From a virus (taxonomy: Duplodnaviria; Caudoviricetes), in the IMG/VR virus record IMGVR_UViG_3300036846_000476, positions 1-59,543 of that record: 59,543 nucleotides of DNA. The stretch is one strand, 5' to 3'. The notes under the pieces were generated by a model that saw nothing but the letters and a program-made list of their open reading frames with translations, was not told the origin of the DNA and made no database searches. Position 1 is the stretch's first letter. The number at the start of each line of letters is the position of its first letter. The translations under genes and the position numbers were made by a program. Shown here in pieces: positions 323 through 54,833 of the stretch.

Positions 323-1908
323 TCACCCTTAGTACCGGTACTAACATGTTCGTCACCTCGAATGCCAAGCACGTCATCGTGCCCTGGCAGGAGAACCTCG
401 CCAGGGTGGTGCCGCATGCGCGCACCCTCGTGCACGAGGGTGCGCGCATGCTCGTGCTGCCCAACCGGCAGGACGAGATCAGGGTCGCGCGCAACCTCGG
501 GCTCGCGATCCCGTCGCCGGTCCTGACCAGTTATGATTGGCTCGGCAAGAAGCCCTGGGACATTCAGCGCACCACGACCGCGCTATTAGCCGAGAGCCCC
601 CGGGCCTACGTGCTGAACGAGTTCGGCACCGGCAAGACCCGCAGTGTTATTTGGGCAGCCGACTACCTCAAACGAACAGACAACATCGGGCCGGTGCTGG
701 TGACCGCACCCCTGTCGACATTAACCCCGGTGTGGGAAGCCGAACTCTTTCGGTTGATCCCAGCGGCGCGCGTCCAGCTGATCCACGGCACCAAGGCACG
801 ACGGATCGAACGCCTCAAGGAAGACGCCGATTGGTACATCATCAACCATCATGGCCTCGACCTGATGCTCGACGAGCTGATCGCGCGCAAGTTTCAGATC
901 TTCGTAATCGACGAGCTGGCGGTCCTGCGCAATCGAAGAACCTTATGGTGGAAGGCAGCCAATGTCCTGATGAACAACCAGGCCACCTCGGTCAAATACG
1001 TCTGGGGGCTGACGGGCTCGCCGACGCCGAAGGCCCCGACCGACGCCTGGGCGCAGATCAAGCTGATGACACCCGGTCAGACCACCCGGACCTTTACCAG
1101 GTTCCGTGACCTGACGATGCGCCAGGTCTCACCCTTTAGATGGGTGAAGCGGAACACCGCGCGCCAGCTGATCCACGACCAGATGCAGCCTGCCGTGCGC
1201 TTCGCGCTCGACGATGTGACCGAGCTGCCGGCGATCACCTACCGCAGCCAGAAGGTACCGCTCGAACCCGAGGCGGCGCAGGCCTACCAGCTGATGATGA
1301 ACAAGCTGCGGGTCATCACCAAAAACGGCGAGACGATCACCGCCGTCAACGAGGCGGTCCTGCAGAGTAAGTTACTGCAGGTCTCGTGCGGGTTCATCTA
1401 TACCGACAAAAAAGGGATTTACCGGTTACCCGTTAACTCACGGCTGCAAGCTCTTCTCGATATCGTCGAGAGCACCGACCGTAAGTTCCTGGTGTTCGTG
1501 CCGTTCCTGCATGCGCTCGACGGCGTCGCCACGTTTTTACAAAAAGCGGGCGAGGACATCGCGGTGGTGCATGGCCAGACTCCGGTCGGGTTTCGCAACA
1601 AGGTATTTAGATCGTTCCAGGAAAGCCTCGACGAGGTTCGCGGCATCGTCGCACACCCGGCCTGTATGTCGCACGGACTCACACTCACTGCCGCCAACAC
1701 GGTGATCTGGTACTCGCCGGTCAACAACTACGAGACCTACGAGCAGGCCAACGCGCGGGTCTACCGGCCAGGCCAGACCAGCAAGACTTTGATCGCGCAT
1801 CTGATCGGCACACCGGTCGAGCAGGCCACGTATCGGCGGCTGCAGGAGCGGGGTAACTTCCAGGGGATGCTGCTCGAGCTGTTCCACCGGCAGGAGCAGG
1901 ACCTATGA
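319..1908 (+). CDS. SNF2-family (SF2) helicase; alternative start at ATG 346
   Basis: GTGKT Walker A, VIDE Walker B, LTGSP motif III, HGLTL and QANARVYRPGQ motif VI. Confidence 0.9.
   Translation: MITLSTGTNMFVTSNAKHVIVPWQENLARVVPHARTLVHEGARMLVLPNRQDEIRVARNLGLAIPSPVLTSYDWLGKKPWDIQRTTTALLAESPRAYVLNEFGTGKTRSVIWAADYLKRTDNIGPVLVTAPLSTLTPVWEAELFRLIPAARVQLIHGTKARRIERLKEDADWYIINHHGLDLMLDELIARKFQIFVIDELAVLRNRRTLWWKAANVLMNNQATSVKYVWGLTGSPTPKAPTDAWAQIKLMTPGQTTRTFTRFRDLTMRQVSPFRWVKRNTARQLIHDQMQPAVRFALDDVTELPAITYRSQKVPLEPEAAQAYQLMMNKLRVITKNGETITAVNEAVLQSKLLQVSCGFIYTDKKGIYRLPVNSRLQALLDIVESTDRKFLVFVPFLHALDGVATFLQKAGEDIAVVHGQTPVGFRNKVFRSFQESLDEVRGIVAHPACMSHGLTLTAANTVIWYSPVNNYETYEQANARVYRPGQTSKTLIAHLIGTPVEQATYRRLQERGNFQGMLLELFHRQEQDL
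329..344. repeat. Motif A palindrome TTAGTACCGGTACTAA (exact)
   Basis: Read directly; immediately before ATG 346. Confidence 0.97.
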
Positions 1909-1972
1909 CCTTGACAAATCACGACCAACCCCCTAAGTACCAATCGTCCATTAAGTCCATCCGAGTACAACT

Positions 1973-2007
1973 ACGGCGCGCGGCTCCGAACCGCGCGCCG
2001 TTTTTTT
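1973..2007 (+). terminator. Rho-independent terminator
   Basis: ACGGCGCGCGG-loop-CCGCGCGCCGT followed by a T run. Confidence 0.85.
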
Positions 2008-2161
2008 ATTTGTCTTGGAGGTGACATGGGCTTCCACGAAGACGAGGTGCGGCGCGTCCTACGGTGGACGCCGAATTACTACGCCGCGACGCAACGGCTA
2101 TGGCCCAATCTTAAACGCGACGACCAGGAACTAATCGCTGCAGCTTTACAGGTGGTGAGCG

Positions 2162-2542
2162 ATGACGCCCGGCGACATGATCAACAACTATCTCAAACTC
2201 CGCAGGAAGCTGGAGAAGATAGCGGAGAGGCACAAGCAGGAGCTGGAGCCCTACCTCGAACTGAAGAACCAGTTGGAGGTGAGCCTCTTAGCTCACCTCC
2301 ACGAAGCCAAGGTCGACAGCACAAAGTCCGAGGCCGGCACCGCGTTTAAGGCGACCGCCACATCGGTGACGGTCAAGGACTGGAACAAGACCCTGCCATT
2401 TATTATCGAGAACGAGCTGTGGGATCTGTTGGAAGGGCGCGTCGCGAAGAACGCGGCGATCGAGGTGATCGAGGAGCGCGCCGCACCGATCCCGGGCGTC
2501 GAAGTTTCTCAAACGACGGTCTTGCGGGTGCGTGCCGGGTAG
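2162..2542 (+). CDS. Phage replication-module protein (coiled coil), function unknown
   Basis: Coherent 126-aa ORF with RBS-like GGTGAG, between helicase and SSB-like gene. Confidence 0.75.
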   Translation: MTPGDMINNYLKLRRKLEKIAERHKQELEPYLELKNQLEVSLLAHLHEAKVDSTKSEAGTAFKATATSVTVKDWNKTLPFIIENELWDLLEGRVAKNAAIEVIEERAAPIPGVEVSQTTVLRVRAG

Positions 2543-2559
2543 GTCTAAACTCGCATAAC

Positions 2560-2572
2560 TACAGTTCCTATA
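2560..2572. promoter_or_regulatory. Motif B operator-like palindrome TACAG-TTC-CTATA
   Basis: Read directly; just upstream of the GGAGG RBS of the SSB-like gene. Confidence 0.7.
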
Positions 2573-2589
2573 ATATCGGAGGATGGACG

Positions 2590-3742: not shown

Positions 3743-6673
3743 ATGCTCGATGCCGAGACATTTCTAGCTCGTATTGTCCCCGCCGACGGGTACATCGCCT
3801 TCGCCTACAAGGGCCCCAACTTCAGGGCGATGGCGCATAGGTTCTTTCCGTACCAGGATCTGACCGACGCCGCCAACTGGATGCGGTACGTCAGCCACAA
3901 GATCGACGTGTGGTACGCCGTCGCGTCCTACAAGGACGCAGCTCAGGCCAAGACCGACGGCAACGGCAACCCGATCTACAAGGGCAAGCGCGACCAGGCC
4001 AACACGGTCAGTTTGAAATGCTTCTGGTACGACGCCGATATCTCACGACCGGGTGATAATAAATCACCCGACCAGGTCTACACCGACGATCTGCATGTCA
4101 CGCGCTGGCTGGCCCAGGCTAAAACCCAGGGCCTGCCCATACCCAATCTGTGGATCAGGTCGGGCTACGGTGTGCACCTGTATTGGGTGCTGGACACACC
4201 GTTGCCCCGGGTCGAGTGGATAACGCACGCGCAGCGCTTCCGGCAGCTTTTAATAAACACCGGCGCGCGCGGCGACATCGGGGTCTCGACTGACTGCGCC
4301 CGCATACTCAGGATACCGGAGAGCTGGAACCACAAAGTCCCAGCCAACCCAACCCAATGCTACGACATGACGCCGCCGGCCATCGAGCAGCGCCTACCGG
4401 ACTACAAAACTCAGGACTTTATAAAACTACTGCCGGTTAGTACCGGTACTAAACAACTCACTGGTTCACCGGCCGCGCCGGTGAACCGTTCGCCGCTGCT
4501 CTCAGCGGCGAAGGCCGGGCTCGCTCGCGCGCCGCATGACTTTAAACTCATTGCCAACCGCTGCCCGCAGGTCGCCAGGTCGCTCGCCGAGGCAGGAGCA
4601 ACCGACGCCCGCCCGCTGTGGCACCTGATGCTCAATCTGGCTTATCTCTGCGGAGATAAGCAATCGGCGCACGATATCGGTTCGGCGCACCCAACCTACT
4701 CGGTGGCCGACACCGACAACAAGTGGGACCAGACCGAGGCCGAGCATCAACACAAGGATTTCGGCGCGCCCTTTTGCGCGAGCTTCGACAGCGCGCGACC
4801 GGGCATCTGCTCAATGTGTCACCACTGGCAGAAGATCACCTCGCCCTACAGCCTCGGTCTTCTCGACGATCCGACCACAACCGGCTTACCCAGTGGGTAC
4901 CGGCACGGCCAGGACGCCCTGGAGATTTATCTCAAGGATGGTTGGACGAAGCTAGTCGAGGGCGCGGTCTCCAACCCGAAGCTGTTCCGCCACGGCGACA
5001 CCTACCGGCTCCTGTTCGACTACACCTTCGCCGGCCGCGCCTCGCATGTCGTCATCAACGATAAGGACATCAGCTCGACGGTCGACAAGCTGCGCGGGCT
5101 CCTGGTGACACAAGGCGTCTCGCTCAATTACACAACCACCATACCGTTTGGGAAATTTATCATGGCCTGGATCGAGGAGCTGCGGAAACACACCGTCGTC
5201 GAGCTGAGGCCGCCCTTTGGCTGGGTGACCAACACAGATGGGACTTATCTGGGGCTTAGTGTCGCCGGAACCTTCTATGGGGCAGACGGGTCGGAAAATG
5301 AGGCTCTCACCGGTGACCCGAAGATCCACGAGTTTTACCAACCGAGGGGCAACATCGACACCTGGAAGAAGTCCGTCGAGTTTGTCGTTGGCACCAGGCC
5401 CGATCTGCAAGCGACCTTTGCCGTTGCATTCGCCGCGCCGATCATGGAGCTGGTCGGCGAGAGCGGCATTCTGTCGATATGGTCAAAGGAGTCGGCCACA
5501 TACAAAACATCGGTGTTTCACTCCGGCAGCTCGGTGTGGTGTGACCCTATAAGGGGCACCTCGGCGATCCGCGACACAACCAATTCAGTACAGCAAAGCT
5601 TAATGCAGACGCGGTTCATGCCGGTGTTCTGGGATGAAGTCCATATAGACACACCCGAACAGCGCGCCACGATGGTCGAGATGTTCTTTAACATCACGCA
5701 AGGTCGGGGCAGGGCGCGGCTCGACCAGAAGATGGAACAACGCGACCCGGGGCAGTGGCGCACGATGATGGCGACTGCATCGAACCACCCGATGAGCGAT
5801 CTCATAGAACAGGACCGGCAGGGAACCGATGCTGGCACGCTGCGGGTGTTCGAGTACCGGTTTGCAGTTCCCTCAGGACCTACCACTGGACCCAACATTG
5901 CCGGCGAGGCGCAGTACCACTACGGCCATGCCGGGCGGGTTTATGCAAAGTGGCTGGCTCAAAACGTCGACCGGATCAAAACCAACATCAAGCAGGTTAG
6001 GGAGATCATCAAAGAGAAACTCGAAGCCCGCAGATTGGAGGGGCCGAAGGGTAACGAGAGGTTCTACATCGCTTCTATCGTCGGCATCGTGGTCGGAGCG
6101 GCGATCGCCAAACACCTTGGCCTGGTCAACCTGCAGCCGAGCGGTATTTTGAATTTCCTGCTCGACCGTTTTATCGAGCAGCGCGCAGAGCGCGAAGAGA
6201 ACAACCCGGTGCACGACGAGGCAATGTGGCTGTCGCGCAACTTCGAGAAGTTTGTATCGGACCACACGGAGCATCTCTTAGTCACCCAGAGTTTCATCCC
6301 GCGCGGACGACCGCGCGCTGGCCTGCCCCAGGACCGGGTGCGGGTCCTGAAACAGCCAGGACCGAAGTGCGTCTATGCCAAGATCCACATTGGCCTCGAC
6401 GACGCCGAGATGCGCTTCGATCGGCAGGACTTCATCAAGTGGTGCTTCGCCAACGGGCTCTCATACAAGGGGCTGCTCGAGGTGATGCAGCGCGATTGGA
6501 GTGTGAGCGACAAGGTCAGGAACATCCTGGCCAAATCGACCGACTGGGCTTCGGGCGGGCAGGTCTACTACCACCGAGTCCCGCTGACGAGACCTGAGCT
6601 TTCCCACCATCTGGGTTGGGGAACGCCGGTTAGTACCGGTACTAACGTCGTACCACTGACAGGAGGAACGTGA
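3743..6673 (+). CDS. Primase-helicase (AEP/RepB-like primase N-terminus, DUF927-like helicase C-terminus)
   Basis: DAD, SGYGVHLYW and RILRIP primase motifs; Cys cluster; degenerate Walker A (SATYKT), WDE, QGRGRAR. Confidence 0.85.
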   Translation: MLDAETFLARIVPADGYIAFAYKGPNFRAMAHRFFPYQDLTDAANWMRYVSHKIDVWYAVASYKDAAQAKTDGNGNPIYKGKRDQANTVSLKCFWYDADISRPGDNKSPDQVYTDDLHVTRWLAQAKTQGLPIPNLWIRSGYGVHLYWVLDTPLPRVEWITHAQRFRQLLINTGARGDIGVSTDCARILRIPESWNHKVPANPTQCYDMTPPAIEQRLPDYKTQDFIKLLPVSTGTKQLTGSPAAPVNRSPLLSAAKAGLARAPHDFKLIANRCPQVARSLAEAGATDARPLWHLMLNLAYLCGDKQSAHDIGSAHPTYSVADTDNKWDQTEAEHQHKDFGAPFCASFDSARPGICSMCHHWQKITSPYSLGLLDDPTTTGLPSGYRHGQDALEIYLKDGWTKLVEGAVSNPKLFRHGDTYRLLFDYTFAGRASHVVINDKDISSTVDKLRGLLVTQGVSLNYTTTIPFGKFIMAWIEELRKHTVVELRPPFGWVTNTDGTYLGLSVAGTFYGADGSENEALTGDPKIHEFYQPRGNIDTWKKSVEFVVGTRPDLQATFAVAFAAPIMELVGESGILSIWSKESATYKTSVFHSGSSVWCDPIRGTSAIRDTTNSVQQSLMQTRFMPVFWDEVHIDTPEQRATMVEMFFNITQGRGRARLDQKMEQRDPGQWRTMMATASNHPMSDLIEQDRQGTDAGTLRVFEYRFAVPSGPTTGPNIAGEAQYHYGHAGRVYAKWLAQNVDRIKTNIKQVREIIKEKLEARRLEGPKGNERFYIASIVGIVVGAAIAKHLGLVNLQPSGILNFLLDRFIEQRAEREENNPVHDEAMWLSRNFEKFVSDHTEHLLVTQSFIPRGRPRAGLPQDRVRVLKQPGPKCVYAKIHIGLDDAEMRFDRQDFIKWCFANGLSYKGLLEVMQRDWSVSDKVRNILAKSTDWASGGQVYYHRVPLTRPELSHHLGWGTPVSTGTNVVPLTGGT
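4437..4452. repeat. Motif A (exact), in-frame in primase linker (VSTGTK)
   Basis: Read directly. Confidence 0.97.
6630..6645. repeat. Motif A (exact), in primase C-terminal tail (VSTGTN)
   Basis: Read directly. Confidence 0.97.
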
Positions 6674-7105: not shown

Positions 7106-7486
7106 ATGCCACGTATTCAAACACTTGAAGAAGTGGCGGAAGAATACCGCGTGTCACCGAGGTGGCTGCGCGACTATGTGCGCGCACACAACATCCCGGT
7201 GTTGCGCAGCCGTCACAAAATCAGGTTTGATCACGTCGCGATCACGAAACTTGAAGAGGAAATGCGATGTCGCTCAAAGTCCGAGAAAGAGGTGACCGTC
7301 CGGGGACGTACCAAATCTACGGCAGTGCAGGCGGGCAGCTCATACGACAGACTGCTCAGTCTCACAGCCTCAAGCTCGCCAAAGAAGAAGCCGCCCTCCT
7401 CGAGGCGCGGCTCATCAAGGAGGAACTCACCGGCGCAAAAGGTCGTCGCGATCGGCTCTTCGCCGAGATCGCCGAAGCATACATAG
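7106..7486 (+). CDS. xis: Excisionase-like HTH protein
   Basis: TLEEVAEEYRVSPRWLRDY HTH, wing RHKIRF; AGGAG RBS; directly upstream of and overlapping the integrase. Confidence 0.75.
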   Translation: MPRIQTLEEVAEEYRVSPRWLRDYVRAHNIPVLRSRHKIRFDHVAITKLEEEMRCRSKSEKEVTVRGRTKSTAVQAGSSYDRLLSLTASSSPKKKPPSSRRGSSRRNSPAQKVVAIGSSPRSPKHT

Positions 7487-8364
7487 AAAACCAGAAACGA
7501 CACCCAGCACAGATCACTCGCATCCTGGCAATTGTCCGGGCGCTCGGTGACAAACGGGTCAGCGCAATCGACCAGGAAGAAGTCGACCGGATTACCCACA
7601 TGCTAATCAAGAAGCAACACCCTGCACGCAACACCGTCAAGATCACCGTCACCATGCCGCTGCGGGCCGTGATCAACTTCGGCTGGCGGCGGCGCTGGTG
7701 CGAGGCAATCCCGCCCTTCGAGCTGCCCGACGAGAACCGCGCCAAGAAGACCGCGACGATCCTACCGCATGAAGCGAGGCTCTTGGTCGATGCCGCATCG
7801 CGGCATATCCGGCCGATCCTCGTTACGATGTTTGGCATCGGCTCGCGGATCACCGAGACGCTGGCGCTGGAATGGGCCGACGTCGATCTCACCACCGCCA
7901 AGGCGACGTTGATCCAGAAGGGCCGGAACGGCGGGCGGGTGCGGCATGTCCGGTTGCCGCCGGCGGTCGTCGCGGCCCTGGCCTCGATCCCGGGTCCACG
8001 GGAGGGGCGTGTCTTCCTCACCCGCTTCGGCCTGCCCTACCGGCTCGACCGCCAAAAGGAGGGGCGCGGCGGCGGTTCCCTCGACCACGCCCTAACCAGT
8101 GCGATGCGACGCGCCGGGTTCGCTGGTCAGCCCTGGACGGCGCACACGCTGCGCCACAGCTGGGCCTCCTGGCACCTGGCGGTCTACCGTAGTCCGAAGC
8201 GGCTGCAGGAGGATGGCGGCTGGGACCGGCTGACGATGATCGACCGCTATACCCATCTGGCCCCGGAGGGGCACGAGGCGGCGATCCTGGCCTTTTGGGG
8301 TCTCGGTGCCAAAGTTGACACCAAGGTTACACCAGACCAAAACGGGGTTGCGCTAACTGCTTGA
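7267..8364 (+). CDS. int: Tyrosine recombinase/integrase
   Basis: Catalytic set R (GSRITE), K (QKG), HxxR (HTLRH), W (GGW), Y (RYTH). Confidence 0.92.
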   Translation: MSLKVRERGDRPGTYQIYGSAGGQLIRQTAQSHSLKLAKEEAALLEARLIKEELTGAKGRRDRLFAEIAEAYIENQKRHPAQITRILAIVRALGDKRVSAIDQEEVDRITHMLIKKQHPARNTVKITVTMPLRAVINFGWRRRWCEAIPPFELPDENRAKKTATILPHEARLLVDAASRHIRPILVTMFGIGSRITETLALEWADVDLTTAKATLIQKGRNGGRVRHVRLPPAVVAALASIPGPREGRVFLTRFGLPYRLDRQKEGRGGGSLDHALTSAMRRAGFAGQPWTAHTLRHSWASWHLAVYRSPKRLQEDGGWDRLTMIDRYTHLAPEGHEAAILAFWGLGAKVDTKVTPDQNGVALTA

Positions 8365-11421: not shown

Positions 11422-11623
11422 ATAACCCTCGGACCTTGAGTTTGTTAAGCCGGAAAAAATTGCGCGGGTTCAACTCATAAGCCAGCAGCGCGCGCTCCAG
11501 CTCGCGGCAATAGGCCTCGTTCTCGGCAGCTTCCATCGCCGTCCAGTCAGTCGAGGGGATCGCCGGCGGCACCGGCCGGTCGATCTGGTAGTTTAGTACT
11601 GGTACTAACAGCGCCGTTCTCAT
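11417..11623 (-). CDS. Hypothetical protein
   Basis: GGAGG RBS; ATGA overlap with the giant gene. Confidence 0.65.
   Translation of the reverse strand: MRTALLVPVLNYQIDRPVPPAIPSTDWTAMEAAENEAYCRELERALLAYELNPRNFFRLNKLKVRGLL
11593..11608. repeat. Motif A variant TTAGTACTGGTACTAA
   Basis: Read directly; one mismatch; translated as LVPVL. Confidence 0.93.
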
Positions 11624-14600: not shown

Positions 14601-17600
14601 CCTGAACGATATCGGTCAGCGGACGCAACACATGATCGAGAACACTCCCCTGATTGCGCGATAGGTTAAACATGTTGCGCAGCACGGTCTTGAACGCGGT
14701 CCACAAATTGGGCCTGCCGCCCAGCTCGGGCCCGAGGCCAAGCTCGTTCAGGATGCGCTGCAGCCTCGGGTTGACCGCGCGCTGCGCCATTAGATCCTGC
14801 AGATGCGCGTCGGTCAGGCTGTAGGTCAGCGCCTCGTCCTTGTCCCGCATCGCGCTTCTGAGCGAGAGCCGTTCGTCCGGCGTCAGCTCGCGGCCAGGTG
14901 CATCGTGCATGCTCTGCAACTGGCTGGTGATCTCATTCAGCGCTGTAAGATGACCGCGCTCGCGATCGGTCAAATCGGCGGTCGGGGCGGTACGCAGGCG
15001 CTCGATGTATTTGTAGGTCGCTGCGTGCAGCGCCTCGTGCAGCACGCTGGTGGCCAAACCATGCGTATCAGCCACATCGCGCAGGTACGGCTCGTTGAAG
15101 GTGATCATTTCCGGGCGCCCGTCTCGGGCGCTGAAATACCGTGCCACCTCCTGCAGGCGCGGCTCGGAAACACCGTAGCGCGCTTGCGCCGCCTCGTGCG
15201 TCATGGCCTGCAGATCAGCCGGCAGCATCCGCTTCAACTGCCTGGCGAGCGCGGCATAGTGCGGCGCCTGGGTCTGGGCGTGTGGGTTATTGATGATCGC
15301 GTCGAGATAGTCGTGGATCGACGCCGGCTCGCCGCGTGCCTGCGAGCGTTCGAGGACATTCCAGAGCGGCTGGTTGAGCGTCGACGAGGCATGCCGCCGA
15401 ACCACCGCACCCAGATTGGCCAGCCCCTCGCGTGCCCGCATCAAGCGCGACGCAACGCTGGCACTAGCGCTGCCCTCCTCGACATTGCGCAGGTTGTCCT
15501 CCAGCAACATCAGATCGGCCAGCCGCTCCTTGCGGTTCAGCTGTTCGTTGATCTCGGCCTGGAGGGTTTTGGTAAGGCCCTGACGCTGCTTCCCACCGGG
15601 TGCCTCTTGCAGCGCCTTGGCTCGCTCGATCAGATCTTTCTCGAGGTTGGGATCGTTAGCGCGGTCAATCTCAGCACGGACGTAATCCCGCAGCCTGTCA
15701 TACAACCGCGCCGGCCCCTGCTTCTGGGAGCCGTAGAGCCGGTGCGCTTCGGCTGGTGACAGTCCTTCGTCGAGCACCCGCTTGACGATCGCCGCAGCGC
15801 GCCGGTCGAGCTTTTCAGGTAATGGTGGTGTCTCCTTAGTACCGGTACTAACCGCCTCGACCGGCCTGCCCTCGGTAGGTTCAAACACCTGCTTCTGTGA
15901 CTTCACCTCCTGGCGTGCTTCCTCGGCCATGCGCGATACCCGCCTGACCGGTGGTGCAGGCGGCGGTTCTTCTGTAGGTGGCGCGGTGTAGACCTTGCCG
16001 CGTTCGGGCGTTGACTCGACCTTCTGAGCCTGGCGCTTACGCAACTGAGCGCCCACAGTTTCTGTTGGTACTGTTGCAGTCTTAGCAGCTTGCTTGGCGC
16101 GCAGCTGCTCTCCTACAGTTCCTGTAGTTTCAGCCGGTGCCTCGGCCCGCGCAGCACGCGCTTGCGCCAGGGCAACCTCGGGCGTTTCACCTCTACCGAT
16201 AACCCCAGTCTCGTCACTGACGGCAAAGCCCTTGCCCTCACGCGCGACCGTCAGCCCTTCGGTCGAGGCGGCAGGCTCAAACGCGGGTTTAGTAGCGGCG
16301 GGTGGAGCACTGCTGCCCTCGCCAGCTGCGAGGTCTTCTAACCTCGCAGCGTGCACGCCGCGATAAACTTCTCCGGTAGCGCTCCTGATGTCGTTGACAA
16401 GCCCAGCACGTTCGAGCGCCTGTTGCTGCTCCGGGGTAAACTGCTCGATCGGGTAGGCGTTCTCCGGTGTCTTGGTCAGCTCGCCAGTAGGAGGTGCCTC
16501 AACGTTCGCACCTTCGCCTTCTCCTGCTGGTGCAGGAGAAGGCTGAGTCGGCGCTTCCTCTTTGGGTGCGAGGTTAGCCGGATCGCGGGCGCGGGCGAAC
16601 TGGTAGGCCTGCTCGGCGGTATCCCCGACAGCCACGACATGACCGTCGGGCGTCTTGACCACATACCCCGGTCCCTGGTCGTCGGGCTCGACAGTCCAGC
16701 CCTCACGCGTTTCCAGGGGCGGCGGCGCTCCCATCGGACCGCGCTCCGATGGTGGTGGCGGTGGGGGCTCGGGATACTTGGTACGCTCGATCGGTTCGTT
16801 GGTGACGCGCCGGGTTCCGGGTTCCTCACCGGCCAACGGCAAGCGGCCCTGCTGCTCGGTGGTGACCGGCAGCTCGCCCTGCTGACCGGTGTCTCGCGCC
16901 GGCTGTGGGGTACTCCGAACACCCGGCAACTCGGGCTGGCCGGGCGGTGGTTCCGGGTACCCCCCGGGGGGTACCCGGAGCTGCGTCGGTGGGGTGGGCA
17001 GCGGAAGCTGCTCCCCAGGCCCCGTAGGCGCCCCAGGAATGGGCAGTTCACCCTGGGTGGGGGGTGGGGCAGGGGGCGGCGCTTCCGGCGCTCCTGGCGC
17101 ACCGTAGGCGCCTGGCGGCCCAGGCTGGGGTGGCGGCGGTGGCTCGGGTGGCGGCACCGGTGGCCCGAACTGCTCGGGCGGGCGCGGCCCATAGGCACCC
17201 GGCGCACCGGGTCCTCCCGATGGCGCCTGCTCACCGGAAGGCGGCGGCGGTCCATAACCGCCGGGCGGTCCCGGTCCAGGCGGTGGGGCCGGCGGCCCGA
17301 ACTGCTCGGGCGGACGCGGACCATAGCTCCCGGGCGGCGGCACGCCGCCTTGCTCCTGCGCCGTCTCGCCCAACGCGGCGCTTTCTTCCGGCGTCACGCC
17401 CTTGTCAGTGGGTGGTGGTGCACGACCGCGCGACCCGAGATACCCGACCGCGCCAAAGAGCGGCGCGCCGATCACACCACCGACCGCTGCTTCGGCAAGC
17501 TGCGCACCGGTGGGAGCTTCGTACTGCCCGGTCGCGGCTGCCTTCGGCAACGGCTCGGCAAACGCCCCAGCCGTGGTGATCAGCGGCATACCGACTACGG

Positions 17601-40232: not shown

Positions 40233-40702
40233 CCCCCAATGCTCAAACAGCAGTGCAGCGTCACGGTTAAGACAGCGATAAGAGCCTGTAGTTTGGGTTT
40301 CAGCGACCGGTTGGCGCGCGCGCCAGCTTTCTTGACCTCGGCCTCGGCATCGTGGACGCATTTGGCGATCTCGGGGTTGGGGATGATGTAGCGCACCTTG
40401 ATCGTGCTGGGACGGTTCGCGACGTTGCCCTTCTTGGTCTCGGTGACGATCTTGATGTCGTCCGTCGCTTGTCGTTGCGACAAGACGACGTCAACTGTCG
40501 GTACCGAAATATCGAGGTGCGCCGCTATCACTGGCCGCGTCGGGAAGGGTAGGGGCGGGCGGTGGTCGTTCAGCTTGACGATCAGAGCCAGGACCTTGGC
40601 GGTGGCCGCCGGCGGCCGCTGCGTCTGGCCCCGTTCGCGCAACAGCTTGGTGAGCTGGTCGACGACATAGCCGTCGATAATCGGCAGTGATGTGCTAGCC
40701 AT
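40229..40702 (-). CDS. Winged-HTH DNA-binding protein (regulator candidate)
   Basis: FPTRPVIAAHLDISVPTVDVVL HTH followed by beta wing. Confidence 0.65.
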   Translation of the reverse strand: MASTSLPIIDGYVVDQLTKLLRERGQTQRPPAATAKVLALIVKLNDHRPPLPFPTRPVIAAHLDISVPTVDVVLSQRQATDDIKIVTETKKGNVANRPSTIKVRYIIPNPEIAKCVHDAEAEVKKAGARANRSLKPKLQALIAVLTVTLHCCLSIGG

Positions 40703-40906: not shown

Positions 40907-41503
40907 TTAGTTAAAATTCCAGAAACGCGCGACGGCGGTCTTGATACCGCCGGCCTGCCGATCAAGCTGCAGCTCGACGATCGCACCCCCGACAAAGGGG
41001 GCACGACGGGAGCCCGAGAAGCTGGGAACCTCGACCGTATAGGAACCACCGTCCTGGTGGTAGGCACCAGTCCGACTGCCATGAACCAGCAAAAGGTGGT
41101 GGTCTGTGACGCCGGAAACGGGGAAGGGCCTGTTCTCGAAAAATACCGGCACCCGGGTCTCGCCGTGCACCAGCTCGAGGGTGCCGAAATCGTGCCAGTC
41201 GTGGCGCGCTGCGACGCGCATGGCCGGCTCGATCCTGCTGACCGGGTTGGCGCGAAACAGCGTGGTGAGGTTCTCGACCTGCGGATAATAACGCGGCGCG
41301 TCTTTTGGGTGTAGGTTTTCGTCGAGCAGATCGCCGAGGTGTATGACCTTGTCGGCGCCGTGTTTCACGAGTTCGTGAAGGAAGCTGCCGAGATCAGCAA
41401 TACGCGCGGCGGGGCCGCCCAGCAGGGTAGATCCCACGACCCCGAAGATAATGCTACCCGACGCGTCGGTGTGCAGCTCCCCGTGATGAAGCGATGTCGC
41501 CAT
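40907..41503 (-). CDS. Degenerate calcineurin-like metallophosphoesterase
   Basis: DKVIHLGDLLD motif present; DxH and GNH motifs not evident. Confidence 0.5.
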   Translation of the reverse strand: MATSLHHGELHTDASGSIIFGVVGSTLLGGPAARIADLGSFLHELVKHGADKVIHLGDLLDENLHPKDAPRYYPQVENLTTLFRANPVSRIEPAMRVAARHDWHDFGTLELVHGETRVPVFFENRPFPVSGVTDHHLLLVHGSRTGAYHQDGGSYTVEVPSFSGSRRAPFVGGAIVELQLDRQAGGIKTAVARFWNFN

Positions 41504-41818: not shown

Positions 41819-41834
41819 TTAGTACCGGTACTAA
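41819..41834. repeat. Motif A (exact), upstream of the stand-alone gene
   Basis: Read directly. Confidence 0.97.
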
Positions 41835-43099: not shown

Positions 43100-43600
43100 G
43101 GTCTATAGGATCGCTAACAGATTGATGTAATAGGTAAAAGTAATAATTCATATCTTATATATAGTAATATATTTAAATAATTTATTTTATTTACTGTTTA
43201 CGGATATACAGTACGTAGAGGTACAATTTTTCGATGATGTGAGACGCGATCGGGCGTGACCCCTTAACACTAGGTACCCTCCAAAACCGTGCATCAATTA
43301 AACGTTTTATGTAACGCCTTGTTATCATTGCGTTATGTCGCTCGCGTCATGGTGCATCAATACTGAATTTAGTGTGCATTAGTTCCGTTAGTACCGGTAC
43401 TAAGAGTTTACAAACCATCATATTTAAAAATGACGTCAAAACGCGAAAGAAACTGACGTCAAAATTAAGTTACGATAATCTACAGGCTCAAAGTGACGTC
43501 AGTTCTCATGCCGCACTGACGTCACTTTCAATCCATTCATCACCTGGATCAATCAATTCGACGTCAATTTGGTCCGCACGTTCTGTAATGAGTGACGTCA
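43100..43600. other. AT-rich region plus TGACGTCA array (origin/control region candidate)
   Basis: Nearly pure AT tract about 43135-43200; TGACGTCA at 43431, 43454, 43494, 43517, 43593 and CGACGTCA at 43559. Confidence 0.6.
43388..43403. repeat. Motif A (exact)
   Basis: Read directly. Confidence 0.97.
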
Positions 43601-44092: not shown

Positions 44093-44121
44093 TTGACAAT
44101 TACAGTAAAAGTTGGTATAAT
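44093..44121 (+). promoter_or_regulatory. Consensus sigma70 early promoter
   Basis: TTGACA-17 bp-TATAAT with extended -10 TG and AT-rich upstream tract. Confidence 0.9.
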
Positions 44122-44169: not shown

Positions 44170-44185
44170 TTAGTACCAGTACTAA
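44170..44185. repeat. Motif A variant TTAGTACCAGTACTAA within a 26-bp palindrome (44165-44190)
   Basis: Read directly; in the leader of the early promoter. Confidence 0.93.
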
Positions 44186-44210: not shown

Positions 44211-44543
44211 ATGGCCAAACGACACAACGACGCCCTCGCGATCAGCATGGGCGCTTGCAACCCGTCGGGCATCGCACTGTCTATCGTGGATGCGTGCCGG
44301 GAAATCCGCGACGAACCAAACTACGGCGGCACTGACATGCTCACTTCCGATCCGGCAGTGAAGCTCATGGTCAGCCAGCTATCGTTCATCGTGGGCAACG
44401 GTGAGATGGGGCTCGATCAGTACAACCATTGCATGGTTGTCTGTCGGGCGCATCGTGACCTTAGCGATGGCTCTCGCACGGTTAGTACCGGTACTAAGAT
44501 GATGGATGACACCCAGCCCAACCTCATCGGCATATACTGGTGA
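44211..44543 (+). CDS. Hypothetical early protein
   Basis: AGGAG RBS; first gene after the promoter. Confidence 0.7.
   Translation: MAKRHNDALAISMGACNPSGIALSIVDACREIRDEPNYGGTDMLTSDPAVKLMVSQLSFIVGNGEMGLDQYNHCMVVCRAHRDLSDGSRTVSTGTKMMDDTQPNLIGIYW
44482..44497. repeat. Motif A (exact), in-frame (VSTGTK)
   Basis: Read directly. Confidence 0.97.
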
Positions 44544-44765: not shown

Positions 44766-45590
44766 ATGAAAGGATGGATGGACATGACTGCATATCGTTC
44801 CTATTGGACTGGCCTACTCAAGCTCTCACTCGTGACAGTTCCGGTGAAGTTGTACTCTGGTACAACCGAGCGCGAGAAACCCAAATTCCACCAGATACAC
44901 GAACCATCAGGAGAAAGAGTAAGACAGCAGCTCGTGGTTCCTGGTATCGGTCCTGTCGAGAGGTCCGATATCGTGAAGGGCTACGAGTACGCCAAGAACC
45001 AGTATCTCACCATCGCACCTGAAGAGCTGGCGTGCCTCAAGCTCGAGACCACCGACACGCTGGACCTGGTTCAGTTTGTTGATGTGGATGATGTTCATGC
45101 AAATGAACAATACGTGGGTGATCCGATGTTCCTTGCGCCCGACGGCAAGGCAGGCGCCGAGGGGTACCGCGCTATCAGGGATGCGCTCGCCAACTCCGGC
45201 ACAGCCGGAGTTGGGCGCGTGGTGATCTCTCAGATCGAGCGCACGGTTCTGGTGCGCCCGTACCTCAACGGGCTTTTACTCAACGCCCTCAGGTACCAGG
45301 ACGAGGTTAAGGACGCGGGTAGTATATTTGAAGGTGTTGACGATGATCCCGTCGAGGACGGGATCATCGCGATGGTGACCTCGCTTATATCATCTAAATT
45401 AAAACCACTCGATATCACCGCGTTCAAGGACACCTACCAGGACGCGGTGCGCGAGTTGATCAAAAACAAGCTGGATGGCGTTGAGATCACCGCGCCCGCT
45501 CCCAAGAAGCAGGCGCAGGTGGTGAACCTGATGGACGCGCTCAAGCAGTCGCTTGCTTCTGTTACCAAACCCAAGAAGCGCGCGGCTTAG
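44766..45590 (+). CDS. ku: Ku DNA end-binding protein (NHEJ)
   Basis: WTGLLKLSLVTVPVKLY, IVKGYEY, LRYQDEV, FKDTYQ..V.ELI..K, VVNLMDALKQSL. Confidence 0.93.
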   Translation: MKGWMDMTAYRSYWTGLLKLSLVTVPVKLYSGTTEREKPKFHQIHEPSGERVRQQLVVPGIGPVERSDIVKGYEYAKNQYLTIAPEELACLKLETTDTLDLVQFVDVDDVHANEQYVGDPMFLAPDGKAGAEGYRAIRDALANSGTAGVGRVVISQIERTVLVRPYLNGLLLNALRYQDEVKDAGSIFEGVDDDPVEDGIIAMVTSLISSKLKPLDITAFKDTYQDAVRELIKNKLDGVEITAPAPKKQAQVVNLMDALKQSLASVTKPKKRAA

Positions 45591-45602
45591 TACCGGTACT
45601 AA
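45587..45602. repeat. Motif A (exact); supplies the Ku stop codon
   Basis: Read directly. Confidence 0.97.
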
Positions 45603-47311: not shown

Positions 47312-47327
47312 TTAGTACGCGTACTAA
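47312..47327. repeat. Motif A variant TTAGTACGCGTACTAA (still a perfect palindrome)
   Basis: Read directly; next to motif B-like 47297-47309. Confidence 0.93.
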
Positions 47328-48559: not shown

Positions 48560-48826
48560 ATGGCCGAACCAAAATACACGCTGGTGCGTCACAGCGCCTG
48601 GACGGCGGCGGGGTTTGGACAGTTCGAGCATGCGGTCGAACTGTGCTCCGTCGAGCCCAAACAACTCACGGCGATAGCACGCGCCGGCGGGCTGATCTTC
48701 AACACCTACACCGAGGCGTCCGATCGCGAGGATGCCGAGAACTACCCGGAAGAGGTGAAGGGCCTCATACCCTACGCACGAGGCAAGTTTAAGATCGTGG
48801 GCAACCTCGATCTCTACATCCCTTAG
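48560..48826 (+). CDS. Hypothetical protein
   Basis: AGGAGG RBS. Confidence 0.75.
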   Translation: MAEPKYTLVRHSAWTAAGFGQFEHAVELCSVEPKQLTAIARAGGLIFNTYTEASDREDAENYPEEVKGLIPYARGKFKIVGNLDLYIP

Positions 48827-48838
48827 TACCAGTACTAA
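48823..48838. repeat. Motif A variant TTAGTACCAGTACTAA; supplies a stop codon
   Basis: Read directly. Confidence 0.93.
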
Positions 48839-49776: not shown

Positions 49777-49796
49777 TATAACAGCTATAGGAAAGG

Positions 49797-51134
49797 ATGG
49801 ACAAAATGAGACAGCTACCAACACGCGTCGACCTGACGCCAGAGCAGGACGAAATGATGGTCGCGGCACGCGTCGCGTTCTACAAAGCCTGCCCGTTCTT
49901 CTGCAGCTTCTACTATGACCAGCTGCAAGAGTACCCCACACTCGGGGTACCGACCGCCGCCACAGATGGGCGGCGGGTGTTCATCAACCCGGAGTACGTG
50001 TTTAAGTTACGTATCCAGGAGATCGTGTTCGTCATCGCGCATGAAACCTACCATGCCGTGTGGCGCCACGTTATCCGCATGAAATACTACATGCGCGAGA
50101 AATTTATCGAGAGCCTGCCGTTCGATCCGGAGTTCTTCAACACCTGCGCGGATTACGTCATCAACGCCGATCTTCTTGACCTAAAAATAGGTCAAATGAA
50201 CCCGAACTGGTTGCACCACCCCGAGGTCAACGGCAGTGACCTTGTAGAAGAGGTCTACGTCAAGCTCTGGGTCGCACCGCCACCGCCACCTCCTGGTGGC
50301 GGTGGCCAGTGTGAGGGTGAGGGTGAGGGTGAAGGCGGTAGCGGCGGGGGTAGTACCGGTACTAACCCCAACCTCCCGAAGCCCAGCGTGTACGGAAAAG
50401 GATCGCGGCCAGACCACGATGCTAAAGACGGGCGGTTCGACGAGCTGCTGGAACCGTTTCGGGACCCCGTTAGTGGTAAGGAAGACATTAGCGACGAGGT
50501 GGTGTTTAAGGAGGCGGTTGCTCGCGCCGAGCAAGCGGCGAAGGCAGTGGGTAATATGCCAGGGAGCTTACAACGTCTCGTTGATCAGATCCTCGAACCG
50601 CAGGTGGACTGGAAGGAGCACGTCCGCATGCTCATTACAGGAAAGGTAGGTAACAGAAGGGAGACGTGGTTAAGGCCAAATCGTAGGAGATTGGTGCTCA
50701 ATCCGATCGTCATCATGCCGGGCAAGCAGGGTCACGGCTGCGAGCTGGTCGCGGTGTGGATCGACAACTCGGGATCGGTCGGTAAGAACGAATACAACGC
50801 GTTCTTTAGCGAGGTAGGCGGTATTATGAACGACGTGCGCCCCAAGCGCATGTTCGTCGGATGGTGCGATGCGAAGGTGCAGCGCACGGCCTGGGTCGAG
50901 TCGCTCGACGAGGTGTTCGACCGGTTCTACGAACCGACACCGGGCGGCGGCGGGACGAGCTTCATCCCACCGTTCGCGTATATGATCGAGCATGAGATCA
51001 ACCCCGAAACCCTAGTGTACCTGACCGATATGATGGGGCCGTTCCCCAGGCAGGCACCAGACTACCCGGTAGTTTGGTGTGCAAGTACAGCACATGTGGG
51101 ACCGTGGGGCGAGACGGTGAGGATCAGGGTGTGA
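49797..51134 (+). CDS. DUF2201-type metallopeptidase-vWA protein
   Basis: TAATDG, AHETYH (HExxH), DYVIN, MIDAS DNSGS, GGGT, YLTD. Confidence 0.88.
   Translation: MDKMRQLPTRVDLTPEQDEMMVAARVAFYKACPFFCSFYYDQLQEYPTLGVPTAATDGRRVFINPEYVFKLRIQEIVFVIAHETYHAVWRHVIRMKYYMREKFIESLPFDPEFFNTCADYVINADLLDLKIGQMNPNWLHHPEVNGSDLVEEVYVKLWVAPPPPPPGGGGQCEGEGEGEGGSGGGSTGTNPNLPKPSVYGKGSRPDHDAKDGRFDELLEPFRDPVSGKEDISDEVVFKEAVARAEQAAKAVGNMPGSLQRLVDQILEPQVDWKEHVRMLITGKVGNRRETWLRPNRRRLVLNPIVIMPGKQGHGCELVAVWIDNSGSVGKNEYNAFFSEVGGIMNDVRPKRMFVGWCDAKVQRTAWVESLDEVFDRFYEPTPGGGGTSFIPPFAYMIEHEINPETLVYLTDMMGPFPRQAPDYPVVWCASTAHVGPWGETVRIRV
50350..50365. repeat. Motif A variant GTAGTACCGGTACTAA in the Gly-rich linker (GSTGTN)
   Basis: Read directly. 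Confidence 0.93.
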
Positions 51135-52124: not shown

Positions 52125-52126
52125 CC

Positions 52127-52802: not shown

Positions 52803-52818
52803 TTAGTACCGGTACTAA
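52803..52818. repeat. Motif A (exact), operator position upstream of the XRE-like gene
   Basis: Read directly. Confidence 0.97.
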
Positions 52819-53137: not shown

Positions 53138-53175
53138 GGCCAGAGAATTGGGCCTGGGTGGGAGGGTGGAATTAG

Positions 53176-53361
53176 ATGACAGATCTGTTGCGTGCCAGGA
53201 TCAACGAGAAAGCTTTTAGGGAATTGGTAGCAGGTCGCGTTGCCAAGCTCGAGACCCGCCACGGTGCCGAGCTGGCCGTCGAGGTGATCCTCGAAGATAT
53301 CGGTTGGTCTAAGATACTTATGGCAATCCATGATGCGATAGGTGAGAAAAAAGATGGGTGA
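53176..53361 (+). CDS. Hypothetical protein
   Basis: RBS and coupling. Confidence 0.55.
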   Translation: MTDLLRARINEKAFRELVAGRVAKLETRHGAELAVEVILEDIGWSKILMAIHDAIGEKKDG

Positions 53362-53662
53362 ACAACGCCGCCGCCAGTTCTATCGCCAAGAACTAACCCA
53401 ACGCCTCGGCGACGCGCCGGTCGAGGAAGCATACTACGCGAAGATGAATGCCGTTGCCCAGGCGATCGACCAGTTCTTTAATGGTGACACCAAGGGTCCC
53501 GATCGTGAGGTCGGCTTCGTGCTAATGGTGTTCCCCTATGGCGACTTCGAGGGGCGCGTCAACTACATGAGCAACGGTGCAGACCGGCAGGACGTGGTCA
53601 CGCTGATGAAGGAAATGATCGCACGGTTCGAGGGCCAACCCGAGGTGAAGGGTTCGGCATGA
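53354..53662 (+). CDS. Hypothetical phage protein
   Basis: GFVLMVFPYG...NYMSNGADR. Confidence 0.7.
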   Translation: MGEQRRRQFYRQELTQRLGDAPVEEAYYAKMNAVAQAIDQFFNGDTKGPDREVGFVLMVFPYGDFEGRVNYMSNGADRQDVVTLMKEMIARFEGQPEVKGSA

Positions 53663-53937
53663 ACCTACGTCACTACATGGGCTACATTGGGATGTTCACC
53701 CGCGATCAGGCCGAGGGTGCGATCCCCAACGGGGCGCGCATCGTGAAATCTTTCACCGAGGAACACGACGCGAACCCGGTCGGCACGCTGGGCACGGTTC
53801 TCGGTTCGATCGAGGCACCACCTGGGGTGACAGGATACCCGGACAAGTTCTTTTACTTTGTCGAGTGGGACCCGTCGCCGCGACTGGCGGTAGGCGTCAG
53901 GGCCGCTAAGATCGCGGAGGTAAAAGAAAACACATGA
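53659..53937 (+). CDS. Hypothetical protein
   Basis: ATGA coupling. Confidence 0.65.
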   Translation: MNLRHYMGYIGMFTRDQAEGAIPNGARIVKSFTEEHDANPVGTLGTVLGSIEAPPGVTGYPDKFFYFVEWDPSPRLAVGVRAAKIAEVKENT

Positions 53938-54167
53938 TCCCATTTATCGGTTGCCCACACTGTCGTGGCATCAGGTTCGTGGCGGGTCCGCGCGGCGGTG
54001 CCTCACAAAACGTCACCTGTTGCCACTGTTCGGCGCGGTATAACCTGGTGATCCCACCGCTCCCCGGTCCTCTTCTGTTGTTGGAGGAATTGAGCGCGCC
54101 GACTGGTGAGCGCGCCGAAGTCCGAGGCAGGGCTTACATCATTGAGTTGATCCCCGATGATGACTGA
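53934..54167 (+). CDS. Zn-ribbon protein
   Basis: CPHC...GPRGG...CCHC. Confidence 0.6.
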   Translation: MIPFIGCPHCRGIRFVAGPRGGASQNVTCCHCSARYNLVIPPLPGPLLLLEELSAPTGERAEVRGRAYIIELIPDDD

Positions 54168-54594
54168 GACGATCCCTACGCCGCTCTTGGTTGGACCAGC
54201 CGAGATCGCCGCGCTGCAGCAGCTGCGCGAGGCTGCAGCCAAGGCGCCGGTCAACATGACCGAGCTACAATTGGCCGGGTGGCGCAGCCGCTGCAAACGC
54301 CAGCACATACGCCAGATGAACACGCAGACGATCCAAATACCGTTCGCGTTCTTCGTCACCTTCTTGATCGAGACCCACCACCCCAACGGCAACACCACCC
54401 GGCACATGTCGATGTCGGTTAAGCGCGAGGGGCGCTTGCCCCATCCAGACGGGGTCTGGATGGTTGCCAAGGAGCTAGGGTTCATCGGTTCGCTCGAACA
54501 GTGCGACGCAGTCTACATAGAGAAGCTGAGCGACGGCGGCGACGCGGTCAACGTAGTGCAGATTATATCTGCACCCGAGGCAGGACGCGCATGA
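54157..54594 (+). CDS. Hypothetical phage protein
   Basis: RHMSMSV...LPHP. Confidence 0.7.
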   Translation: MMTETIPTPLLVGPAEIAALQQLREAAAKAPVNMTELQLAGWRSRCKRQHIRQMNTQTIQIPFAFFVTFLIETHHPNGNTTRHMSMSVKREGRLPHPDGVWMVAKELGFIGSLEQCDAVYIEKLSDGGDAVNVVQIISAPEAGRA

Positions 54595-54821
54595 AGCTGA
54601 CGCCCCAAGAACACCTTATCCTGCGCAGCTACCTTGCAACTGCTACGCTGCGCATCCAGGAGGAGTTCAGCAGCACGCACACACCGAACGAGTTCATACC
54701 GGAGTTTGTCGCCGCGTTGGTTTCGCTGGCACGTTCGATCTCGATAGACAGTATGGGTGCGAGCGAAGAGGAGTTCCTCGAGATCGTCAACACTGCTTTT
54801 GATGAGAGGCCCACCCATTAG
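54591..54821 (+). CDS. Hypothetical protein
   Basis: ATGA coupling; stop supplied by motif A. Confidence 0.6.
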   Translation: MKLTPQEHLILRSYLATATLRIQEEFSSTHTPNEFIPEFVAALVSLARSISIDSMGASEEEFLEIVNTAFDERPTH

Positions 54822-54833
54822 TACCGGTACTAA
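54818..54833. repeat. Motif A (exact); supplies a stop codon
   Basis: Read directly. Confidence 0.97.

Follow-up and report, generated by a model that had tools for sequence, protein, structure and literature searches.

The phage genome and its palindromes

The window analysed here is the whole stretch of 59,543 nucleotides that makes up IMG/VR virus record IMGVR_UViG_3300036846_000476, with a G+C content of about 60%. It carries a lattice of 20 copies of a 16-bp palindrome, TTAGTACCGGTACTAA, of which 14 are exact, five have one or two changes, and one is a 17-nt form. The termini of the window share a 127-base repeat, so that it closes into a circle of 59,416 bp. Judging by its sequence, the window represents a complete soil phage of about 59.4 kb, distantly related to Rhizobium phage RHph_TM27A (TM27A in the following). 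At the DNA level, 324 bases of the major capsid gene share 74.5% identity with four Rhizobium phages from the RHph_TM27A group, and distant relatives of the portal protein are found in podoviruses of the HMO-2011 type from marine alphaproteobacteria. A search of phage DNA with the early region as the query returned no match.

The early and replication genes are read rightward, from 41858 round the circle to about 9480, the late genes leftward (37468 to about 9433), and the terminase genes rightward from 37533. A short leftward operon of two open reading frames (ORFs; 40907-41503 and 40229-40702) opposes the early genes. The genes that could be named encode a SNF2-type helicase, a DUF927 primase-helicase, a tyrosine integrase (7267..8364, plus strand; Pfam Phage_integrase E 1.6e-13, PHROG 1 E 9e-35), a 2263-aa virion-type protein, an SLT-domain protein, a Ku-like protein, a MoxR-type ATPase, a VWA/metallopeptidase protein, a family A DNA polymerase and a PD-(D/E)XK nuclease.

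The 14 exact copies of the 16-mer were located by an exact motif scan, while 100 dinucleotide shuffles contained none (0/100). When up to three mismatches are allowed, 19 sites are found, against a shuffle mean of 0.04. The five inexact ones start at 11593 (CTGG centre), 44170 and 48823 (CCAG centre), 47312 (CGCG centre) and 50350 (first T replaced by G). The twentieth site, at 32177, reads TTAGTAC-CTC-GTACTAA and is 17 nt long, with a 3-nt centre. A preliminary description of this DNA, made from the sequence alone, had listed the same 14 exact copies and six variants, five of them altered only in the centre, and the scans recover each of them in place. The 7-bp arms are perfect in 19 of the 20 sites and the centre varies; outside the sites, the TAGTAC hexamer occurs only three times.

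The preliminary description had left room for an abundant host repeat or an artefact. In 596 Gb of species genomes the 16-mer matches 44 stretches, each of them single, with no plausible host among them, so it is not an abundant host repeat. In IMG/VR beyond the window it is present as a single copy on five contigs. One DNA run and no RNA run was listed as holding this DNA. In the Logan contigs, a second assembly of that run, the region 38641-52380 is found in one piece with one base difference; this run may be the source of the window, and the agreement is thus between assemblies and not between independent reads. As the Logan assembly agrees and relatives from other samples carry lattices of their own, an adapter or assembly artefact is very unlikely.

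The only genome with more than two matches to the 16-mer is a Parabacteroides gut assembly (L113, L125, L131, L145, L148 and L149, one metagenome-assembled genome), where it occurs six times on four contigs; these copies are probably an unrelated repeat of that genome. The palindrome was also considered as a restriction or modification target, as it contains GTAC, CCGG and ACCGGT, yet none of these is avoided elsewhere in the phage genome, and this role was discarded.

Positions of the sites

On a hand-made gene map, in which three ORF starts were shifted to the first ATG after a site, 14 of the 20 sites lie mostly outside ORFs, compared with a non-coding fraction of 5.8% of the genome (P about 1e-13); with two doubtful cases counted as in-gene, the number is 12 of 20. 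In five ORFs the stop codon is a TAG within a site, and the start of the next gene is found 0 to 58 nt beyond a site. The sites described below are exact unless a change is given.

Site 6 (20889..20904) is located at a gene junction, where its TAG is the stop of a 387-aa ORF (20901-22064, minus strand) and the ATG of an 824-aa ORF is 2 nt beyond. The same arrangement is observed for site 7 (27820..27835), which provides the stop of ORF 27832-28359 (minus strand) and is followed after 3 nt by the GTG of a 583-aa ORF. The Ku-like ORF 44766-45590 ends with the TAG of site 15 (45587..45602), and ORF 48560-48826 with that of site 17 (48823..48838; CCAG centre), also at a junction, with an ATG 17 nt onward at 48856. 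The stop of ORF 54501-54821 overlaps with site 20 (54818..54833), and the family A DNA polymerase gene (55132-57039) lies further downstream. Other sites follow a stop codon at a short distance. Site 1 (329..344) is 7 nt past the stop of ORF 122-322, with the in-frame ATG of the SNF2 helicase ORF at 346, 1 nt downstream; the matching gene start in the related genome G001 also carries a site. Site 4 (11593..11608; CTGG centre) is 11 nt past the stop of the 2263-aa ORF (11620-18411, minus strand). Site 9 (35219..35234), between the portal gene and the next late gene, is 5 nt past the portal stop, and the ATG at 35208 follows 10 nt onward with a GGAGG in between. The 17-nt site 8 (32177..32193) adjoins the ATG of ORF 31799-32176 (minus strand), about 80 nt past the stop of the major capsid gene.

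Further sites stand ahead of genes in the early region, which has the highest density (ten sites between 41.8 and 54.8 kb). Site 11 (41819..41834) belongs to a divergent control region, 23 nt ahead of the rightward ORF 41858-42751 and 316 nt upstream of the leftward operon 40907-41503 / 40229-40702. Site 12 (43388..43403) is found in a non-coding, AT-rich stretch, 27 nt ahead of a cluster of five TGACGTCA motifs. Site 13 (44170..44185; CCAG centre) is 48 nt past the end of a sigma-70-type consensus promoter for the rightward early genes (44093..44121, plus strand; TTGACA-17-TATAAT, 12/12 hexamer positions, TG before the second hexamer), in its leader, and 25 nt upstream of the ATG at 44211. 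Site 16 (47312..47327; CGCG centre) is 24 nt ahead of the ATG of the MoxR-type ATPase ORF 47352-48551, whose homologue in G001 also has sites just upstream. Site 19 (52803..52818) is 19 nt ahead of the ATG at 52838, and just upstream of it is a TTGACT-N15-GATAAT, which has a non-canonical spacing and is not in the list given by the promoter scan.

The six in-gene sites all encode the peptide STGT. Two of them are in the primase-helicase ORF 3743-6673: site 2 (4437..4452), in a linker, and site 3 (6630..6645), 29 nt ahead of the stop. Site 5 (15836..15851) falls in a low-complexity stretch of the 2263-aa ORF, site 14 (44482..44497) in ORF 44211-44543, and site 18 (50350..50365; first base G) in a Gly-rich linker of the VWA/metallopeptidase ORF 49797-51134. 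Site 10 (38011..38026) is 80 nt ahead of the stop of ORF 37533-38105, which is directly upstream of the large terminase gene, in the small-terminase position. In-gene sites of this and related genomes use the stop-free frame, encode small polar peptides (elsewhere TTGS, TTVV, HYRS or ATVA) and are located in variable linkers.

The largest gap on the circle is 6,931 bp (P = 0.04 against random placement), in agreement with the limit of about 7 kb given in the preliminary description. The spacing in the window is evener than random (coefficient of variation, CV, 0.57; P = 0.007), as is that of G001 (P about 0.03), but not that of TM27A (P = 0.46-0.80).

The TGACGTCA cluster next to site 12 comprises five exact palindromes within 170 bp (43431-43600), where 1.1 would be expected in the whole window, and a sixth near-copy, CGACGTCA, at about 43560. 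The motifs are partly paired with a 23-bp spacing, the first one beginning 27 nt after the site. The cluster overlaps a 63-aa leftward ORF (43506-43697) with an N-terminus that is ribbon-helix-helix-like by eye, without a match to Pfam RHH_1. It could be an operator cluster or a set of origin iterons.

Equivalent lattices in related phages

A capsid-protein search of IMG/VR gave 80 loci, and these loci and the whole records were scanned for inverted repeats. A repeat family with a consistent centre length is present in about 14 of the 80, the rest being short or showing only G+C-rich noise. G001 has 34 copies of ACTAC-N1-3-GTAGT and G002 (80% complete) has 21 copies of the same pattern. In G005 there are 10 copies of CTAC-N1-2-GTAG, and in G004 18 copies of TT[G/A]CTAC-S-GTAG[C/T]AA. 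A third kind is found in TM27A (34 copies of TTACC-N5-6-GGTAA), G006 and G007 (20 and 26 copies, respectively, of TTACC-N4-7-GGTAA); in the half-site form, it can be written TTACCYY-NN-RRGGTAA. The patterns of the relatives read backwards gave no match. Other loci contain more palindrome types (TACCTC-C-GAGGTA, TTACAAC-CA-GTTGTAA and TTGTAGG-G-CCTACAA). Aligned in a 7+2+7 register, the window site (TTAGTAC-CG-GTACTAA) and that of G001 (CCACTAC-CG-GTAGTGG) differ only at mirror-image positions, and the lattices of TM27A, G006 and G007 share the 7+2+7 build. The lattice is a trait of the clade as a whole, each lineage having a sequence of its own.

In TM27A, the 3' arm and centre of several sites (for example L005 8333-8348 and 15513-15528; L011 7374-7389) resemble a Shine-Dalgarno sequence (GGAGGT, GAGGT) 2-5 nt ahead of a start codon, and the 5' arm then resembles an anti-Shine-Dalgarno. 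The G004 genome (the IMG/VR record behind L016; 66.4 kb) has its first ~6.4 kb repeated at the end, with the sites at 1142/61125, 4779/64762 and 5363/65346 present twice, which puts its true length near 60 kb.

Several sites occupy orthologous places. In the primase-helicase, one and the same alignment column holds TTAGTACCGGTACTAA in the window (site 2), ACTACCGGTAGT in G001, CACTACCGTAGTG in G002 and CACTACGGTAGTG in G005, while G004 has AACTACCGTAGCAA there, an imperfect half-and-half form. At the C-terminus of this protein (site 3), the sites of G001 and G002 fall within a few codons. In the ORF upstream of the large terminase gene (site 10), orthologous sites exist in G001 and G004; the site is decayed in G002 and G005, and in G002 a new one is located 15 codons beyond the decayed one, an instance of turnover. 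The Gly-rich linker of the VWA protein (site 18) has an orthologous site in G001 and a copy decayed by one base in G005, a genome in which orthologous sites are decayed at four places. Upstream of the operon homologous to 40907-41503 / 40229-40702, a site is present in the window, G001, G002 and G004. The alignments show that orthologous sites keep their place and change their sequence in concert from genome to genome.

Symmetry of the sites

The variation between copies bears on whether the palindromes are two half-sites on duplex DNA or a stem. Within each genome the arms are invariant and do not co-vary. For the ACTAC type, the positions beside the core form Watson-Crick pairs in 46 of 64 cases (45.3 expected) and in 22 of 64 (25.0 expected). 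With the TTACC type, pyrimidines prevail at the first two centre positions of each half (TTACCYY), and these positions pair in 29 of 80 and 21 of 80 cases, against 32.5 and 27.1 expected. TTG and TTA are mixed freely between the arms in G004, and the flanks outside the 16 bp of the window sites pair at chance (5/20). Read on the sense strand, the one-base centres in relatives are G in 17 and C in 18 cases, with no bias for the transcribed strand. The predicted RNA fold of the 16-mer is weak (-1.9 kcal/mol), as are the predicted stems overall (-1.8 to -5.5 kcal/mol). No T run was seen downstream of any of the 20 window sites, and of the features of an intrinsic terminator or RNA stem-loop, neither a stable stem nor a compensatory change nor a U run was found at the sites. 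Because of the invariant arms, the independent variation of the two arms, the lack of strand bias and the weak RNA fold, two half-sites read on duplex DNA are favoured over an RNA or DNA hairpin. The suggestion of a site for a dimeric protein in the preliminary description is borne out to this extent: the arms do not change, the centre is unconstrained, and each half-site degenerates irrespective of the other.

A candidate reader

The distal gene of the leftward operon (40229..40702, minus strand) encodes a 157-aa protein, p157, which AlphaFold2 models as a winged-helix protein with mean pLDDT 85.3 and pTM 0.72. Besides helices, the model shows a helix-turn-helix, a beta wing and, at the C-terminus, a long helix. 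In the PDB, Foldseek ranks MarR-family regulators first (E 4.5e-4 to 1e-3, TM 0.38-0.45). In BFVD the top matches are winged-helix phage proteins, some of them named repressor or replication initiator; replication initiators as well as the replication terminator protein RTP are among the winged-helix matches. By sequence, p157 has no Pfam family at E up to 0.05, no PHROG, and no PDB chain below E 0.79. Four candidate proteins had been named in the preliminary description, and p157, one of them, is modelled as a winged-helix DNA binder.

An exhaustive profile search collected a p157 family of 204 representative clusters, in which the scaffold is conserved and the recognition helix varies. Members occur in the window (G000 in the genome comparisons), G001, G002, G004 and the short contigs L151, L155 and L157, while in G005, TM27A, G006 and G007 none was found even at E up to 50. 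A tyrosine integrase match is present in the same four genomes (weak and below the Pfam cut-off in G001) and was not found in G005, TM27A, G006, G007, G008, G009 and G010. The recognition helix SVPTVDVVLSQRQ accompanies the window palindrome type, SVPSVDVVLSQRQ that of G004 (and again occurs in contig L151), and S[ML]PLVDVAISQRR the ACTAC type (again in contigs L155 and L157). As this pairing also follows the phylogeny, it is consistent with recognition of the palindrome by p157 but is not independent evidence. A metagenome scan for the family gave short contigs only, and two distant members used as IMG/VR queries had no matches.

The upstream gene of the operon (40907..41503, minus strand) encodes a 198-aa ORF with a weak Metallophos match (E 0.001, below the Pfam cut-off); homologues adjoin that of p157 in G001, G002 and G004.

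Other candidates were also examined. Some 50 window proteins compared with Pfam and PHROGs show no regulator domain, and six-frame scans of the window found no HTH_3 and no RHH_1. The absence of a ParB, as had been remarked from the open reading frames, holds in all six frames for ParB_N (PF02195) at E up to 1, a search in which the control genomes match. The identities of core proteins over six genomes follow the phylogeny and single out no reader. A 420-aa protein (2419-3681), conserved throughout the six genomes compared, was dropped as a reader. Its N-terminal domain is rich in Cys and is followed by a Pro/Ala-rich linker and an acidic tail (IDDLL), a build that suggests a single-strand DNA-binding protein; neither Pfam nor the PDB yields a match, and its Atlas neighbours are unnamed. 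The 2263-aa protein was considered as an N4-like virion RNA polymerase that reads hairpins. It has a weak LPD39 match and otherwise only a DarB-like tail match, and the idea was rejected because the sites show no strand sense. In TM27A, gene 045 (L005 24225-24776) encodes two helix-turn-helix (HTH) domains (HTH_7, HTH_23/29), with a TTACC-type palindrome 3 nt ahead of its start and another inside the gene; it is a possible reader of the lattice of that phage.

Proposed function of the lattice

Starting from the observed sites, their symmetry rules, their conserved places, and the fold and distribution of p157, we infer both that p157 binds the sites and that binding represses. Our leading explanation, held tentatively and with slightly less than even confidence, is that the palindromes are duplex sites for a symmetric phage-encoded protein, most likely p157, and form a multi-copy operator lattice for global repression. 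The two 7-bp half-sites round a 2-bp centre would be bound by the symmetric protein, and the leftward operon of p157 faces the rightward early genes, as that of a prophage repressor would. Bound p157 could close the early promoters and act as a barrier to RNA polymerase, both at junctions between genes and within long ones, with the outcome that the whole genome is silenced in a lysogen, and perhaps the early genes late in infection. Site sequence and protein specificity may have drifted together in each lineage, so that each would carry a separate version of the site and probably form a separate immunity group. Of the three functions proposed in the preliminary description, silencing by roadblock fits best: the genome encodes an integrase, and sites are found both in a divergent control region and downstream of a consensus promoter; chromosome segregation and self-marking find no support.

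A number of observations weigh against this explanation. The link between protein and sites is one of co-occurrence, which also follows the phylogeny, the Foldseek TM-scores of p157 are modest (0.38-0.45), and no Pfam MarR model matches it. The centre varies in length within a genome (in G001, N1 in 13 and N2 in 20 of 34 sites; N5 or N6 in TM27A; one N3 in the window), which is awkward, being unusual for a rigid dimer. Lattices occur in TM27A (34 sites), G006 (20) and G007 (26), where neither the p157 family nor a tyrosine integrase was found; either another protein reads the sites there, or the candidate is wrong. These equivalent lattices also count against silencing as it was first proposed: lysogeny alone cannot explain the lattices in general. 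G005, with neither p157 nor integrase, has the fewest sites (10), yet G004, which has p157, has 18, not many more. The promoter-like site of p157 itself (40778-40750, minus strand; TTTACG-17-TATAAT, 10/12), in the 204-bp gap just upstream of its gene, has no palindrome nearby. Finally, the TGACGTCA cluster together with the small ribbon-helix-helix-like ORF could be the real immunity switch.

Three rivals remain, which we rank in the order in which they are taken here. The sites could be duplex sites for a phage protein with a purpose other than transcription, serving to organise, replicate, package or mark the chromosome; loops might be anchored at them, they might act at replication forks or origins, or they might tell phage from host DNA. 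We regard this as unlikely, though several observations favour it: the even spacing in the window (CV, P = 0.007) and G001 (P about 0.03), the internal sites in tolerated linkers of long genes, as if they were required whatever the gene structure, the lattices of relatives in which no integrase was found, the replication initiators and RTP among the winged-helix matches of p157, and the orthologous site, in three genomes, in the ORF just upstream of the large terminase gene. There is, however, no ParB_N domain, the spacing in TM27A is not even (P = 0.46-0.80), and the low counts in G004 and G005, by inference from the positions, must leave large gaps. Moreover, the density peaks in the early region and the sites hug gene starts and stops, which fits gene expression better. 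A more speculative idea, which we consider less probable still, is that the lattice gives the phage chromosome an identity code specific to each lineage, in temperate and non-temperate soil and water podoviruses of a large clade. About 20-35 sites, evenly spread and in part placed in protein linkers, would be read by a phage protein so as to tell the phage's own DNA from that of the host or a rival, a conjecture of the same low probability. Such a code, at the same long shot, may serve replication, protection or exclusion, with site-reader co-evolution giving rise to new incompatibility groups and repression being a side use.

The next rival, that the palindromes act as stem-loops in RNA or single-stranded DNA, is improbable. 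As RNA they might serve processing at cistron junctions, stability, translational coupling or antitermination, and as hairpins in DNA, priming or a hairpin-reading polymerase. A loop would tolerate the varying centre, which measures 1-3 nt in G001 and 5-7 nt in sites of the TTACC type. Many sites overlap a stop codon 0-35 nt ahead of the next start, and in TM27A a Shine-Dalgarno-like AGGAGGT is often formed by the 3' arm directly ahead of a start codon. Against these points stand the lack of compensatory changes between copies within a genome and the pairing of variable positions at chance, the weak stems predicted (-1.8 to -5.5 kcal/mol), the even split of one-base centres on the sense strand (17:18), and the absence of a T run after the window sites. 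Six of the 20 window sites, and about half in G001, G002 and TM27A, are inside long ORFs, where cleavage or termination would be harmful, and no RNA polymerase domain was found among the ~50 proteins scanned. Very improbable is the last rival, in which the sites are selfish or recombinogenic mini-elements, comparable with REP elements or T4-type boundary repeats, that would invade tolerated positions and promote module exchange. The sites do lie at gene and domain boundaries, and homology between the window and G001 ends near a site in 3 of 18 cases versus 0.77 expected (P = 0.04), but in five other genome pairs homology ends are not associated with sites (P 0.10-0.63). Repeat-flanked indels are reported for Cluster O mycobacteriophages in the part of PMC4351075 that deals with their repeat. 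Orthologous sites are nevertheless inherited in place and change in concert, which bursts of transposition would not give; among the scanned proteins, which leave aside some small ORFs, there is no transposase-like or HUH domain, and the 16-mer is abundant in no species genome.

Comparison with known systems

In its pattern, the lattice most resembles, by analogy, the 17-bp repeat of the Cluster O mycobacteriophages, TGTTCGG-NNN-CCGAACA, which has 7-bp invariant inverted arms and a centre that varies in sequence but has a fixed length of 3 bp. As described in the section of PMC4351075 devoted to it, the repeat is present in dozens of copies between genes, at gene starts and within genes, and follows no clear orientation; single changes abolish sites, and host genomes lack the repeat. 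In the same section, the authors consider a transcriptional role unlikely and name no reader (PMC4351075). The likeness concerns the invariant inverted 7-bp arms, the variable short centre, the tens of copies and the lack of orientation, that is, the pattern and not sequence or descent. The Cluster O phages are unrelated siphoviruses of actinobacterial hosts, whereas the present lattice has been followed across a clade with changed sequence.

In its proposed action, the lattice resembles, again as an analogy, the stoperators of Cluster A mycobacteriophages and the KorB operators on plasmid RK2. Cluster A stoperators, in the account given in the relevant parts of PMC9283540, are more than 20 repressor sites spread genome-wide in promoters and short intergenic spaces; they stop both initiation and elongation, and their specificity differs between related phages. 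They are asymmetric 13-mers with an orientation that follows transcription, and are read by a two-domain monomer composed of an HTH and a Stoperator domain (PMC9283540, same parts). Like those of L5 and TipsytheTRex, the sites described here are numerous (20) and mostly outside ORFs (14). Unlike them, they are perfectly palindromic and lack strand sense, between a third and a half of them are inside genes, and the candidate reader is a winged-helix protein. The IncP plasmid RK2, about 60 kb in size, has 12 OB sites. At these operators KorB exerts global silencing and acts on promoters far from the site, as a CTP-dependent sliding clamp of the ParB family (PMC11790492, in the parts on KorB action). 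Short palindromic sites in several copies round a mobile replicon are common to both, but no ParB_N domain is encoded in the window. With neither the asymmetric, stranded site of the stoperators nor the ParB fold of KorB, the lattice is a member of neither group.

MarR-family proteins bind palindromic operators as dimers, and as a rule each of them governs one or a few promoters. HcaR and MepR of this family are among the best structural matches of p157; on the other hand, no Pfam MarR model matches p157, and there are twenty sites here. The conserved inverted repeats (CIR) of phiC31, an unrelated temperate phage with a Streptomyces host, are copies of a 17-bp palindrome that is bound by the repressor and present many times in the phage genome. 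A REP/RAYT system differs in that no host carries the 16-mer in high copy and no HUH transposase is found among the scanned proteins.

Genome-wide lattices of sites for one protein have precedents in IncP plasmids and a few actinobacterial phages; the same design is now found in a clade of proteobacterial podoviruses. As this clade includes a cultured Rhizobium phage, the function of the lattice can be tested with RHph_TM27A on Rhizobium phaseoli. New features are the change of the site sequence in concert between lineages while many sites stay put, the maintenance of in-gene sites by coding for tolerated linker peptides (STGT, TTGS, HYRS, ATVA), and the presence of a lattice also where no integrase was found. 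In p157 there is a candidate reader with a readable specificity code. A literature search, with supplements and much of the subscription literature outside its coverage, found no description of the lattice in these phages.

Additional features of the genome

The Ku-like gene at 44766-45590 matches Pfam Ku with E 7e-39; a protein comparison with five relatives found no homologue of it. At 42769-42820, after ORF 41858-42751, there are two strong terminator-like hairpins with T runs, placed back to back. This ORF lies in a stretch of low G+C (0.51) and, in view of the hairpins, looks like a stand-alone unit.

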